Shown: positions 1,838-60,106 of the stretch, piece by piece
Position numbering within the stretch: position 1 is the stretch's first letter
Layout of the letters: each line of letters opens with the position of its first letter
DNA from: a virus
Strand: one strand, 5' to 3'
IMG/VR virus record: IMGVR_UViG_3300034069_002176
DNA: 64,000 nt
Translations under genes and position numbers: made by a program
The notes under the pieces: model-generated
Database searches by the model: none
The model's input: the letters and a program-made list of their open reading frames with translations, nothing else
What the model was told of the DNA's origin: nothing

Positions 1838-2734
1838 ATGTCCAACCTGAATCCCGAGCTTCGCCCTGACAAGAATGGCAAGTTGGTTACCCGCCATGTC
1901 AAGCAGGACGAGCCAGTTTCTTTGAGGATCGTAGGTGCTAAGCCAGTTTCTCCCGCCGTTACTCCGAGCCGTATCACCACGGATACAAGCTATGACGTAG
2001 CACAGGAGGCGTTCGATGAACTGAATCCTGGCAACGAAGAGCTATTCGAGCATTTCTTCCTAGGTAGTACCGAAGAGTCAGATTACGAAGAGCAAATTCT
2101 TGCCGAAAATCCTGAGTTGGATTTTGAAGAAATCAAGCAGACTGCCCTCGCCAATGGCTTTACCGGCTATTGGCTTAACGACGAGAACCTGAATTTCCCT
2201 GAAGATGTAGAGCCTAAAATCGCATCGCGTGATTACGGCGATATCCTCAGCGAGCTTCAATTGATGAACAACACCACCCACGGATCAGAGGCGTTGCGAT
2301 TGGGTGACAACGACCTTGAAGTGTACGCAGCTTATGCCGAGCTAAATGGACCTGATGACGTGCAGAAGGTCGTTACGAATGCTGATGCAGCATACCGAGG
2401 CAGTTTCCGCGCGGATGAGGACTTTGCAGAGGACATGTTCGTTTCCACCTTCGGTTATTCCTCGCAGGAGGGTATCGAAGAACTCAGTAATCACATTGAT
2501 TGGGACCGAGTAGCCGTCAACATGACCCTTGACGAAATGGGCATCGAGGAAGACACCGATGAAGACGATGAGAACGGTTTAGATCGTTCTCCCACCGCCG
2601 ACGAAGCTCGTGATTATTTCGAGAACTCCATTGGTGATGTGTCCAGCATTTCCAACCTCGTCGATTGGAGCACCTATTCCCGTTCGGTGTTGAACGATTA
2701 CAGCGAATACAAGGGACACTACTTCCGTAATTGA
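1838..2734 (+). CDS. DKNGK-leader protein with ArdA-like antirestriction (DNA-mimic) body
   Basis: Start ATG 1838 after SD GAAAGG: MSNLNPELRPDKNGKLVTRHVK. Very acidic body; AYRGSFRADEDFAEDM, IDWDRVAVNM and VDWSTYSRSVLNDYSEYKGHYFRN resemble ArdA. Confidence 0.65.
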   Translation: MSNLNPELRPDKNGKLVTRHVKQDEPVSLRIVGAKPVSPAVTPSRITTDTSYDVAQEAFDELNPGNEELFEHFFLGSTEESDYEEQILAENPELDFEEIKQTALANGFTGYWLNDENLNFPEDVEPKIASRDYGDILSELQLMNNTTHGSEALRLGDNDLEVYAAYAELNGPDDVQKVVTNADAAYRGSFRADEDFAEDMFVSTFGYSSQEGIEELSNHIDWDRVAVNMTLDEMGIEEDTDEDDENGLDRSPTADEARDYFENSIGDVSSISNLVDWSTYSRSVLNDYSEYKGHYFRN

Positions 2735-2759
2735 GTTTACGCTCTAACTCTGGTAGTCT
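2731..2759 (+). promoter_or_regulatory. SigA-type promoter, leaderless start
   Basis: TTGAGT-N17-TAGTCT, 6 nt before ATG 2766. Confidence 0.55.
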
Positions 2760-2765
2760 CTAACT

Positions 2766-3668
2766 ATGACTCTGAGTTTTGATGCCGTGCGCGAAGCGCG
2801 CAACCGACTTCAGTATCTCGATCATCTCTTTGGCACGCCGGATAGCTGGGACTGTGGTGCTACATCAATCGATTCCGGTATTGGCGCACCATACAAATGG
2901 ATGCACACCAAAAGTAGGTTTGTTCCATGCAGCGTTGCAATGTACGACATGCTGTTCTCCGAAATGATTCCTGAGCACGAGGATGAATGGCGAGCATCTC
3001 AGCTTCGTTCCGTAGTCAAAGAAGCGAAGGGTGAGCGGTTCGATGTCGCACTGACCATTGACATCATTGTTGGTTGGATTCGCCGCCCCGATGTGTGGAA
3101 TGATGTCAGCAACAACGGTAAGTTCGTTGAGGTCAATGCACTGAGCACTGATGACGAGTCGCCGTTCTACACGGAGCAGCGATGGTCTCTTATGTGCAAG
3201 GCTGTTGCGACCAATAATTCGGTGATGCCGCGAGCCGCTATCGAATCACTAGATGACTCCATCTTCTCCAAAGAAGGATGGATGACAACGAACTACAACC
3301 GATTCGTCGAGGCGGCTATCGACCTTGACTACGATGCAAGTGTCGCCCGTATCCTCACACGCCCACTTATCAACATCGAAACGACAGATGACTTCATCGG
3401 AACGCTTGATACGAAATATGGTGATGCCCTACCGTGGCTTGCAGCTTTGGAAACGCTGATGTCCGAGAAGGTAAAATTTACCGGCAGCGAATACACGTTG
3501 CAGAAGAAGGTAGCGCGAAGCTACAAGAACAATCTCTTGCCAAAGGACATCATCAAGTGGGGTAAGCTCGGTGTACCTTTCGATCAGATGCTTGTTTATG
3601 CCAAGAATGGCATCGACGAAGATATCCTCAGCATGATGCTGTCAAGAAACCCAGGATTACCAGAATGA
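2766..3668 (+). CDS. Hypothetical protein with shared C-terminal GI..NGID motif
   Basis: 300 aa; C-terminus LLPKDIIKWGKLGVPFDQMLVYAKNGIDEDILSMM resembles ORFs 6320, 8301, 8915 and 23558. Confidence 0.75.
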   Translation: MTLSFDAVREARNRLQYLDHLFGTPDSWDCGATSIDSGIGAPYKWMHTKSRFVPCSVAMYDMLFSEMIPEHEDEWRASQLRSVVKEAKGERFDVALTIDIIVGWIRRPDVWNDVSNNGKFVEVNALSTDDESPFYTEQRWSLMCKAVATNNSVMPRAAIESLDDSIFSKEGWMTTNYNRFVEAAIDLDYDASVARILTRPLINIETTDDFIGTLDTKYGDALPWLAALETLMSEKVKFTGSEYTLQKKVARSYKNNLLPKDIIKWGKLGVPFDQMLVYAKNGIDEDILSMMLSRNPGLPE

Positions 3669-3738
3669 GTTGCATTATGAGTCGAAACCCGTATGATGTG
3701 GGAGTGCATATTGTGACCTATTTGTGGGGCGGTGAGAT

Positions 3739-4221
3739 TTGATGGCGGAACCGTCCCTCACCACCGAATCTCCGAACCTCCGTAACAGGTGGATTCGCTA
3801 CGTCCATACGGATGAAGAAACTGGTCGCGACAGCATTCAAGTGACTCAGATTGTCACCGTGGAAGTCATCTACGCTAGACCCCAAAGTCATCGCGATCTT
3901 GACCACACAGACAAGGCTTATGTCGAGTGGTTGATGAATCAAGATGGCAATGGGAAAATTGCTCAGTTGAACATTCTTACATTGTCTCCACAGCAGGTAA
4001 TCGATGACGATGACCCCGAAGTGATGATTAATGTCCCCTATAGCGCCCTGGGTAAGCCAGACAAGGTTGTTGAATTCTCACTTGCGACGGTGCCGGAAGT
4101 GCTCGCCACTATCAATCGCCTTGCTGAAAAACATCACGATCTAGTGAGCCGTCTGGTGGAGCATTACGGTCTCGTTAAGCTCACTGATGGTACTTACACG
4201 TTCCCTCGCCGTAACGGTTGA
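3739..4221 (+). CDS. Hypothetical protein
   Basis: 160-aa ORF with a TTGCAT..TATGAT promoter-like sequence upstream. Confidence 0.7.
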   Translation: MMAEPSLTTESPNLRNRWIRYVHTDEETGRDSIQVTQIVTVEVIYARPQSHRDLDHTDKAYVEWLMNQDGNGKIAQLNILTLSPQQVIDDDDPEVMINVPYSALGKPDKVVEFSLATVPEVLATINRLAEKHHDLVSRLVEHYGLVKLTDGTYTFPRRNG

Positions 4222-58870: not shown

Positions 58871-59169
58871 TCGAGATGCAGAAAAAGGCGCAGGGTATTC
58901 TTTCGCGTCTATCCGAAATTGACGAGAGCGATAGGCTCGAATGGCTGGCAAACATTCTCACTGATACCGCTTCCGAAGGCTGGCACCATCGAGATGATGA
59001 GAAGGGAACCTATTACGAAATCGGATGGGAGGACCCTAGTGCAGATGATGCGCAAGAAGACGGATGGTATGTCAGCCAGACGACTACTAGTAAGAGCCAC
59101 GCCTCACATACAGCTTACCGTTGGGGTTGTGAGTACCGCAGCGTGAGAACCAACCCATTCGAGCGTTAA
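58867..59169 (+). CDS. Small acidic hypothetical protein
   Basis: ATGA overlap with the upstream gene. Confidence 0.7.
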   Translation: MIEMQKKAQGILSRLSEIDESDRLEWLANILTDTASEGWHHRDDEKGTYYEIGWEDPSADDAQEDGWYVSQTTTSKSHASHTAYRWGCEYRSVRTNPFER

Positions 59170-59174
59170 CGGAA

Positions 59175-59205
59175 GATGGTCCGGCTCTAAACAAGCCGGA
59201 CCATC
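59175..59205. terminator. Bidirectional terminator
   Basis: GATGGTCCGGCT / AGCCGGACCATC. Confidence 0.75.
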
Positions 59206-59215
59206 CTCTTTTCTA

Positions 59216-60106
59216 CTACTCACCCATTGGTCCATAGCGAGTTTCGACTACGTTCCACATGAACATGTTCAACGCCGAGTTGCGCCCTGATTCCATAGCG
59301 TAGTCGCTGAAATCCCAACCTTCTGCCGCAGCGTCTACCTTTGCGGATTCCCACTCTTCGTCCGATTCCCACCGACTAGTTGCTTTATAGGAGTCGGGAA
59401 CGTCATCCCATAGTTTGTCAAGACCCTCTGGGCTCTGAATGACTGGGCTATTGTTCCAGATGTCTACAGTCACATCAGAAGATCCGCCATTTTCATTCCA
59501 GAACTTATCCAACTGGGCTGTTTTTTCTGGGTCGGCAAAGAACGCATCTCGAATTGTTGGGTGCGATGCGAGGTGGGTTTCTAGTTCTGCACGAGGAATA
59601 CGAGCGGCTTCATAACCACGCCATTCTTCATCTTCGGTGATCTTTTGTACGGTAATGTCGAGGTCTTCTCCATTGATTCCCAAGGCTGCGCCGATTTCAT
59701 TGCTGAGTTGGGCGGTATCGAAGGTTTCGCCGTCATTTTTAGCGACCTGCATCCAGCTAATACCATCCAGAGGCTCTCCATAGTGCCCGTTACGCTCCGT
59801 CACAGAGTTCTCGATTCTACCGCCCACTTCGATAGCCAGGCGTGTCGCCATCTCGTCGTCACTTTCGCTCCAAGCCCTGAAGTCGAATTTGGGGCTAGTT
59901 ACCCACAGGCTTACGAAGCTGCCCTTTTTGATACTGCCATCTGTCAGCGCCTTTTCGAATTCTGCATGAGTGGTTGGTACGTTTTTCTTGAACTGACCGA
60001 TGCTGCCAAGTGGGCGTGTGGGCGGCTTGGGCGTATCCGACTTCACCTTACGTGTGTAGTTTCTGCCGTTTTTGTCAACACCTGTTTTGATCACTAAATC
60101 AGACAT
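59216..60106 (-). CDS. DKNGK-leader protein, acidic body
   Basis: MSDLVIKTGVDKNGRNYTRKVKSD; SD TAAGGAGG. Confidence 0.85.
   Translation of the reverse strand: MSDLVIKTGVDKNGRNYTRKVKSDTPKPPTRPLGSIGQFKKNVPTTHAEFEKALTDGSIKKGSFVSLWVTSPKFDFRAWSESDDEMATRLAIEVGGRIENSVTERNGHYGEPLDGISWMQVAKNDGETFDTAQLSNEIGAALGINGEDLDITVQKITEDEEWRGYEAARIPRAELETHLASHPTIRDAFFADPEKTAQLDKFWNENGGSSDVTVDIWNNSPVIQSPEGLDKLWDDVPDSYKATSRWESDEEWESAKVDAAAEGWDFSDYAMESGRNSALNMFMWNVVETRYGPMGE

Follow-up and report, generated by a model that had tools for sequence, protein, structure and literature searches.

A common N-terminal hairpin leader on many unrelated acidic proteins of a giant phage or plasmid-like element

This work concerns a short N-terminal leader peptide that recurs on otherwise unrelated proteins encoded in a 64,000-nucleotide (nt) stretch of the IMG/VR virus record IMGVR_UViG_3300034069_002176, the whole of which is called the window here and whose own contig measures 654,127 bp. 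The window holds about 85 genes, and 16 of these (about 19%) encode leader-bearing proteins of 143 to 351 amino acids (aa). An earlier note on this DNA had named 16 open reading frames (ORFs) as sharing a leader; on translation from the starts claimed there, N-terminal variants of PIVDKNGKxTTVHKK were found in 16/16, at 1 to 10 residues from the ATG, and the observation of a common leader is confirmed and larger than first noted. A Shine-Dalgarno sequence or a promoter lies directly 5' of most of the 16 genes. They are listed below by coordinates and strand, and are called in the text by the position of their 5' end; the bit scores come from a hidden Markov model (HMM) of the leader, and the hairpin subtypes and the promoter are described further on.

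1838..2734, + strand: 298 aa; subtype B hairpin ELRPDKNGKLVTRHVK; 54.1 bits; body of isoelectric point (pI) 4.05; promoter GTCACTACTCGGCGCTAGAAT ends 31 nt upstream
4611..5279, + strand: 222 aa; subtype A hairpin; 60.3 bits; acidic body; class II promoter 19 nt upstream
10863..11855, - strand: 330 aa; SVVDKNGKPTHVWKN; 58.5 bits; acidic body; promoter 23 nt upstream; no GenBank phage match
24900..25736, + strand: 278 aa; 58.7 bits; largest body family among the top matches (10 members)
25740..26285, + strand: 181 aa; 57.1 bits; begins 4 nt past the stop of 24900+; no promoter of its own
30133..31035, - strand: 300 aa; subtype B hairpin; 54.8 bits; SpoT/RelA/Mesh1-type HD hydrolase, small alarmone hydrolase-like
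34318..35115, + strand: 265 aa; 62.0 bits; DUF7226 body (Pfam E 1.7e-9)
39660..40124, + strand: 154 aa; leader nearest the consensus, TPIVDKNGKLTTVHKK; 73.5 bits; variant promoter box TGACAC
40256..40741, + strand: 161 aa; 66.6 bits
41633..42244, - strand: 203 aa; EPIIDKNGKATTVWKK; 58.4 bits; promoter 22 nt upstream; divergent to 42366+
42366..42920, + strand: 184 aa; 56.2 bits; promoter present
42975..44030, + strand: 351 aa; 62.4 bits; body pI 4.05; promoter 21 nt upstream; no GenBank phage match
45337..45978, + strand: 213 aa; TPIVDKNGKQTYVYKS; 56.5 bits; 6 nt between the end of the promoter-like site GTCGTGTGGTATTGGTATCAT and the ATG at 45337
48649..49473, - strand: 274 aa; TPITDKNGKQTHVNKK; 61.6 bits; promoter 22 nt upstream
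57368..57799, - strand: 143 aa; most divergent subtype B hairpin, QGIDSRGNAYTRMVR; 44.7 bits; DUF6900 body (Pfam E 2e-20); promoter 20 nt upstream
59216..60106, - strand: 296 aa; subtype B hairpin TGVDKNGRNYTRKVK; 53.1 bits; promoter 18 nt upstream

When all stop-to-stop ORFs of the window were scored with the leader HMM, the 16 leaders received 44.7 to 73.5 bits and all others 5.8 bits or less; as the model was built from these same 16 leaders, the window scores are partly circular. Among relatives, the logo of 154 leaders gives the 22-residue consensus M-S-N-L-x-P-T-P-I-V-D-K-N-G-K-x-T-T-V-H-K-K, in which D11 and G14 never vary and N13, T17 and V19 show 98% conservation. An AlphaFold2 model of ORF 24900, computed with a deep leader alignment, predicts a beta-hairpin from residues 5-11 and 17-23, the ten-residue blocks of the hairpin having a mean predicted local distance difference test score (pLDDT) of 83 and 95 and the linker a lower confidence. 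After the hairpin come about eight variable Ser/Ala/Gly/Thr/Pro residues, then an Arg, then a hydrophobic-x-x-hydrophobic-x-Pro-Pro stretch. The second element proposed in the earlier note (S/T-x-R-hydrophobic) is borne out by the profile, where position 31 is Arg in 86% of the sequences and is followed mostly by V, L, I or A and then by a Pro-rich stretch. Two main subtypes of the hairpin were distinguished, subtype A (...TTVHKK) in 169 of 221 unique leaders and subtype B (...(V/T)TRHVK) in 29 of 221, which differ in that hydrophobic and basic residues trade places in the second strand; both occur in the window and in a second IMG/VR record, G001, described below. The first 24 residues of the leader proteins are basic, their net charge lying between +1 and +5.

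The position of the leader in the protein is nearly, though not absolutely, constant. For the library relatives, the match begins at residue 1 in 107 of 154 and within residues 1-5 in 147 of 154. In 549 kb of further metagenome loci there were 185 unique leaders, of which about 180 had a start codon at most three residues from profile position 1, and the apparent non-N-terminal cases there lie mostly at locus edges or have a start codon slightly upstream. Overall, N-terminal placement holds in about 97% of some 340 instances, and the check called for in the earlier note, whether the leader is always N-terminal, comes out positive to that extent. It fails for two distant proteins, P0010 (770 aa, from a 4-kb JGI contig) with three copies of the hairpin core and P0080 (600 aa, from a 5.7-kb JGI contig) with two, some of which are internal; the hairpin is therefore not confined to N-termini everywhere. 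An internal hairpin in this pair reads QIVDVNGKLTTVHKK, at residue 434.

The proteins behind the leader are as diverse as the leader is uniform. BLAST sorted 167 bodies into 91 families, and the 16 window proteins into 15, the exception being the pair 25740+ and 42366+, which are paralogues (42% identity, E 8e-42). The earlier note had excepted this pair, which held, and possibly 39660+ and 40256+, which did not: the BLASTP alignment of the latter two ends near residue 60, and the leader is all they have in common. A Pfam domain was recognised in only 5 of 149 relatives (GmrSD_N, SprT-like, DUF7226, ArdA and DUF2510). Of particular interest is the DUF7226 body of 34318+, a Pfam label added here together with the DUF6900 label of 57799-: the same body also occurs leaderless in a related contig (L083:5641), and more divergent hairpins (VVRKDGVVTTVHKN) score under the threshold used. 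More generally, ArdA, GmrSD_N, SprT, SpoT-type HD and DUF6900 domains are tagged here and ordinarily untagged elsewhere. With at least 91 body families, and one of them found both with and without the leader, the claim of a modular tag on many unrelated proteins is upheld. The bodies are acidic (median pI 4.57, 89% below 5.5) whereas 35 window proteins without the leader have a median of 5.5.

Selection on the tag was assessed from codons and from identity. At identical residues, window leader pairs use the same codon in 45.4% of cases versus 42.3% expected from body codon usage; this near-expected agreement argues that conservation acts on the peptide and not on a recent DNA repeat, as the earlier note had maintained from the differing synonymous codons. 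Over 104 homologous pairs, identity was 71% in the hairpin, 35% in the linker and 40% in the body. Taken together, these data firmly support the leader as a functional modular N-terminal tag on a class of co-regulated acidic accessory proteins; that it is a modular address tag is well supported.

Individual bodies gave a mixed picture. For 31035-, the HD hydrolase label proposed in the earlier note was confirmed by sequence comparison, with PDB matches to the SpoT/RelA hydrolase (E 9e-6) and Mesh1 (E 3e-4) and a Pfam HD_4 match (E 1.4e-4, 22 bits) under the cut-off of 27.2, and we regard this body as a predicted SpoT/Mesh1-like HD hydrolase. The ArdA label of 1838+ fared otherwise: there was no Pfam match at E ≤ 0.1 (PF07275), no PDB match by sequence or by a 5-sequence profile, and the AlphaFold2 model is poor (pLDDT 57) and without an ArdA fold match. 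The C-terminal motifs of ORF 1838 are ArdA-like by eye, which is a lead only, ArdA being unconfirmed; an ArdA Pfam match (E 1.5e-5) was obtained for one leader protein among the relatives, other than 1838+. The body of 24900+ is modelled with confidence (mean pLDDT 84; predicted template modelling score 0.69), a fold search with this model found no convincing match in PDB or among AFDB clusters, and the body may, on the model, be a new fold. Neither ESM Atlas look-ups (24900+ and P0116) nor tblastn of three bodies against GenBank phages gave a usable lead or a match, respectively. Orthologues of 4611+ are present on an 805-kb contig, and 39660+ is the best library match (P0006).

In addition to the peptide, most of the leader genes share a promoter class. 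The strict pattern GTCR-N11-TAnnnT occurs at 23 sites on both strands of the window, and 13 of these lie 6-31 nt 5' of leader genes (13/16 leader genes), against a chance expectation of about 0.2 sites in 16 upstream regions (23 sites in 128,000 strand positions). A looser pattern showed no excess overall (42 in the window versus 45 in shuffles), and the association of promoter and leader is thus specific. The same promoter precedes 13 of the 18 leader genes of G001, where replication genes do not stand out, and 95 of the 185 leader genes of the further metagenome contigs. For 31 of these metagenome-contig genes only 6 nt separate the end of the -10 from the ATG, implying leaderless mRNAs; leaderless mRNAs are likewise suggested in the window for 31035-, where the -10 ends 6 nt before the ATG, and for 45337+, where the promoter-like site lies 6 nt from it. 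The distance between promoter and ATG varies from 6 to about 40 nt, which speaks against a fixed DNA cassette. A host-type -10 with a box 11-13 nt upstream resembles the middle (MotA-box) promoters of T4, by analogy only. A terminator-like hairpin was seen at 44048-44071, after the 42975+ gene.

Two window genes without a leader also follow sites of this promoter class:

17986..18681, + strand: acidic protein of 231 aa, without leader, with a C-terminal C-C-C-H zinc finger; promoter GTCGCAAGCCCTCTCTATACT 25 nt upstream
36173..36541, + strand: protein of 122 aa, without leader, with an N-terminal DUF5763 zinc finger (Pfam E 3.4e-5); promoter site 48 nt upstream

The 48-nt spacing at 36173+ exceeds that of every leader gene. 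These two, together with 187835-188980 of G001, are the only non-leader genes found after leader-class promoter sites, and all three have a C-x(6-9)-C-x(6-8)-C-x2-H zinc finger, N- or C-terminal on otherwise unrelated bodies. The C-C-C-H zinc finger may be a second small module of the leader regulon, or the activator of that regulon.

A search of 1.84 billion cluster representatives with the leader profile returned 748 at E ≤ 1e-3, of which 38 reached E ≤ 1e-10, the matches lying almost always within residues 1-45 of proteins of 50-440 aa. Ten library matches were looked up and were all metagenomic (JGI, ENA, Logan), none (0/10) with an informative name. The relatives reside on contigs of 805, 495, 358, 231, 205 and 180 kb, and the sequencing runs containing window DNA or part of it were plant, food and leaf-litter metagenomes. 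No match to the leader profile was found in 185,579 GTDB species genomes, which indicates that there is no binned host or prophage copy, and tblastn of the leader against GenBank phages and PLSDB plasmids was likewise without match, as DNA similarity of the window to these two collections showed nothing useful. Over the leader itself, Pfam gave no consistent match in 149 members even at E ≤ 1, and PDB sequences none (best E 0.71). In the literature no occurrence of the motif was met, and in those parts of the huge-phage papers reached by targeted term searches no such leader appears. The leader peptide family is undescribed, as the earlier note had supposed.

Several known kinds of N-terminal sequence were compared with the leader. 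In the logo of 154 leaders there is no hydrophobic helix, no prepilin (class III) G|F-x-x-x-E, no Sec A-x-A site and no twin Arg of Tat; the logo consists of a polar hairpin and a Ser/Ala/Gly/Pro linker with a single Arg, unlike the true pilin-like N-termini of G001. A leader of ribosomally synthesised and post-translationally modified peptides was ruled out by the bodies, which are folded domains of 100-500 aa. An AbrB/SpoVT-like hairpin, considered for the VDxxGR resemblance, was ruled out by the lack of a Pfam match and of the remainder of the AbrB/SpoVT fold. The match of one leader to DUF7259 (Pfam E 0.06) was put down to chance, not being reproduced in 149 members.

The element that carries these genes is either a giant phage or another giant extrachromosomal (plasmid-like) kind. 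G001, an IMG/VR record of 202,737 bp, has 18 leaders, all N-terminal, and encodes a GspE-like ATPase 100% identical to P0164, which is recorded on the 654,127-bp contig; G001 DNA does not overlap the window. From this identity and lack of overlap, G001 and the window are probably different parts of one element, or of two that are nearly identical. Together they contain at least 34 leader genes in 267 kb, and a rough extrapolation at constant density gives about 80 leader genes per genome. The IMG/VR label of G001 ('provirus, 96% complete') is probably wrong. Its replication module comprises a DnaE-type polymerase, clamp, topoisomerase II, SbcC, helicases and ribonucleotide reductase, the DnaE being nearest those of Streptomyces phages (37% identity). 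A type IV filament (Tad/type IV pilus/type II secretion-like) locus, conserved in this clade of 0.4-0.8 Mb elements, was found in G001 (L103; record coordinates 24574-41087; also L104:10001-21641). Its products are two ATPases of the T2SSE family, a fused T2SSF platform, an A24-like peptidase, a pair of pilin-like proteins and three large proteins whose N-termini are TadE-like; synteny extends to the 805-kb contig, and ATPase orthologues occur on 637-, 495-, 413- and 155-kb contigs. A further G001 product of 1030 aa, encoded at 177617-180709 (L100), has at its C-terminus a DNA translocase motor of the FtsK type (PDB FtsK E 7e-17), reminiscent of the TraB-type conjugative DNA pumps of actinomycetes. 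An actinobacterial host is likely, as judged from one window protein at 54778-55524 (+) that combines DUF2510 and DUF732, from LytR_cpsA_psr, the TAnnnT promoters, the leaderless starts and a DnaE near those of Streptomyces phages. DUF2510 and DUF732 are mainly actinobacterial families.

As to what the tag does, a trafficking signal appears the most likely kind of function, since, wherever a single N-terminal motif is known to us to recur across many unrelated fast-evolving proteins, it serves in trafficking, as do the capsid-targeting sequence of T4 (IPI-III and Alt), the phiKZ-type head propeptides, the LXG/MuF domains and RxLR/PEXEL. In the mechanism that we propose, the tag would be a basic N-terminal beta-hairpin followed, within a flexible linker, by a short linear motif that contains an Arg, the whole acting as a sorting address; the element would have joined it to about 100 unrelated, fast-evolving acidic proteins, most of them transcribed from the dedicated promoter class; and the hairpin would be bound by a single conserved receptor that brings the tagged proteins into a transmission vehicle, the virion head if the element is a giant phage and a transfer apparatus otherwise, so that they would reach the next cell along with the DNA. 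Both the receptor and the choice of a vehicle rather than an intracellular site as the destination are what we infer, and loading into a vehicle (virion or other transfer route), our leading reading of the specific destination, is put forward tentatively, as quite possible rather than probable. What little of the cargo is recognisable (alarmone hydrolase, ArdA, GmrSD_N and SprT-like proteins) is of kinds acting on a newly entered cell, which we count in favour of loading.

A number of observations weigh against it. Terminase, HK97 capsid, portal and sheath families (PF03237, PF03354, PF05065, PF04860, PF04984) were not found in the 203-kb G001, no structural family was met among about 46 window ORFs scanned in Pfam, and no virion genes were found near leader genes in the Pfam-annotated contexts on large contigs. 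The leader genes are scattered on both strands among RNA-repair, nicotinamide adenine dinucleotide (NAD) and nucleotide genes, outside any morphogenesis module, and their promoter has a host-type -10 (TAnnnT) and is absent before replication genes. With 16 of about 85 genes tagged, there would be far more cargo species than in any packaging system known to us; very acidic cargo (median pI 4.6) is awkward beside densely packed DNA; the 154-leader logo has no cleavage motif of the T4 (L/I-x-E) or phiKZ type (S/A/G-x-E), the Arg at position 31 being the one conserved residue past the hairpin and cleavage there only a guess; and the two to three hairpin copies, some internal, of P0080 and P0010 are better suited to a binding module than to a processed signal. 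The interpretation given in the earlier note is, overall, partly supported: nothing computed speaks for its virion-head destination, or for its view of the tagged proteins as a counter-defence set, whereas its alternative of a transfer apparatus gains some room from the type IV pilus/Tad-like locus and the FtsK-like translocase of the record that is probably of the same element.

Nearly as likely, and close behind vehicle loading, is the possibility that the tag works within the infected or recipient cell, where co-regulated takeover and anti-defence proteins would be recruited, unpackaged, to one hub such as the nucleoid or incoming DNA, RNA polymerase, the ribosome or a compartment built by the element. 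The dedicated promoter with its host-type -10, the many predicted leaderless transcripts (31/185) and the T4-middle-like architecture would suit such docking, as would the scatter of small acidic ORFans among auxiliary genes, which is typical of phage early and middle genes; a hairpin that is near-invariant across elements while orthologous bodies drift to about 40% identity fits a slowly evolving partner, and the internal and tandem hairpins of P0010 and P0080 and the basic charge of the tag (+1 to +5) point the same way. Yet a hub-binding peptide has no need to be placed at residues 1-22 in about 97% of cases, the known hub-binding motifs (clamp, SSB and PIP boxes) sit on conserved housekeeping proteins and not on some 100 ORFans, and no candidate hub was identified. 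Docking by way of a nucleus-like import is unlikely, and a nucleus-import signal disfavoured, given that the replication proteins of G001 are untagged. A basic hairpin with an Arg/Pro tail might instead tether the acidic bodies to DNA or RNA, in keeping with its shape and positive charge, with the repeated internal copies in P0010 and with the two non-leader window genes that have a leader-class promoter and bear a small zinc finger instead; we think this distinctly unlikely, as the leader has no similarity to DNA- or RNA-binding families in Pfam or PDB, 22 residues at about +3 fused to strongly acidic bodies would bind poorly, and the strict N-terminal position would be left unexplained.

Equally unlikely, in our estimation, is a turnover tag, in which a protease or unfoldase (of the host ClpX/ClpC1 type, or encoded by the element) would see the hairpin and the Arg motif and so produce a short, timed pulse of activity, or a step of proteolytic activation, for the whole class. 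A 22-residue hairpin is longer than known degrons and far better conserved, and a protease or unfoldase gene was not found near the leader genes, against which stand the obligate free N-terminus, the disordered linker after the hairpin with its single conserved Arg, and a separate promoter class that suggests a temporal class. That the peptide is a mere passenger of a gene-start cassette, in which promoter, ribosome-binding site and first codons were spread together by recombination, would account for the co-occurrence of promoter and leader in the window, in G001 and in other contigs, and is nevertheless very improbable: synonymous sites are saturated while the peptide is kept (0.454 versus 0.423 expected), the hairpin is conserved far more than bodies and linker, and the promoter-ATG distance ranges from 6 to about 40 nt. 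A passive cassette is largely refuted by the codon and identity data; recombination may explain the spread of the tag, not the maintenance of the peptide.

Returning to loading into a transmission vehicle, the nearest known system is that of T4, whose capsid-targeting sequence has about 10 residues, ends at the prohead-protease site L/I-x-E and is found on IPI, IPII, IPIII and Alt. The likeness lies in a short N-terminal peptide common to otherwise unrelated proteins of one phage or element, in its modular and transferable nature and in a cargo that, in T4, includes anti-defence proteins. The differences are that the present leader is a 22-residue beta-hairpin with an Arg motif and without an L/I-x-E site; that T4 tags a handful of mostly basic proteins and here about 19% of the genes, with acidic bodies, are tagged; and that here no head genes or prohead protease were found. 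The T4 sequence is the subject of reviews (PMC3012670, PMC9958956), and propeptides of the phiKZ/SPN3US type on head, inner-body and ejection proteins have been described (PMC5694885). The latter systems resemble ours in their giant genomes and in having many proteins with N-terminal regions tied to head incorporation; their propeptides are heterogeneous, defined by S/A/G-x-E and encoded beside structural genes, whereas here there is one conserved hairpin and none of these features. LXG/MuF and RxLR/PEXEL have in common with the leader that one N-terminal module is set on hundreds of unrelated, rapidly evolving effector bodies, an address code from which the effector set can be listed from sequence; they show no sequence or fold kinship with the leader, and LXG and MuF are whole domains of at least 100 residues in contrast to a 22-residue hairpin.

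The principle of a common N-terminal address tag on phage proteins is thus already known from T4, and what is unusual here is the scale, the promoter class of its own and a carrier that may be phage or non-phage. If the leader is a sorting signal, the whole accessory or effector set of an uncultured clade of 0.5-0.8 Mb elements, 748 protein clusters of which nearly all are without known fold or function, could be recognised by a label read from sequence. Candidates for anti-defence and host-takeover proteins would then come in plenty and already sorted, and the tag could be moved to foreign proteins to have them loaded. Tag and dedicated promoter together define a directly testable regulon. 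They bear also on the nature of an element in which phage-like replication, RNA repair, CRISPR-Cas, a type IV pilus-like machine and an FtsK-like translocase are combined. In a bolder reading, which we consider unlikely, giant actinobacterial elements would possess a new route of protein delivery and the hairpin would be its address code, with about 100 effectors per genome and one receptor, served by a particle or by a type IV filament/FtsK-type apparatus; the hairpin would then be a bacterial counterpart of the RxLR/PEXEL host-targeting signals, and the whole delivered 'effectorome' of an uncultured clade could be read from sequence.

Other genes of the window and its relatives are noted here. 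Four RNA-repair and translation-rescue genes, at 21446-22027 (-), 29279-30070 (-), 38353-38997 (+) and 51024-51704 (+), are interspersed with the leader genes; their products, Tpt1/KptA 2'-phosphotransferase, RlaP, an RNA ligase and a PTH2-like protein, suggest that the element counters defences which cleave tRNAs. Next to the leader gene 57368-57799, at 57899-57972 (+), lies a tRNA whose anticodon is CUA (amber suppressor), called tRNA-Pyl by ARAGORN and scoring 55.6 bits with the Rfam tRNA model. The gene at 47124-48596 (+) encodes a protein with WGR and PARP catalytic domains (Pfam PARP E 1.9e-27), and on the 805-kb relative a Macro-domain protein (L002:4065-4523) lies about 6 kb upstream of the 4611+ orthologue. 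The window NadR gene adjoins that of a membrane protein whose orthologue on the 805-kb contig is a nicotinamide mononucleotide transporter (PnuC type), and further window genes encode LytR_cpsA_psr (9547-10866), a thioredoxin reductase, an RNase T-like exonuclease and helicases. Finally, a type I-E CRISPR-Cas set (Cas3, Cse1, Cse2, Cas7, Cas5 and Cas6e; Cas1 weak) is present on the 495- and 358-kb relatives (L097/L098:1-7577), 2.4 kb from a leader gene.

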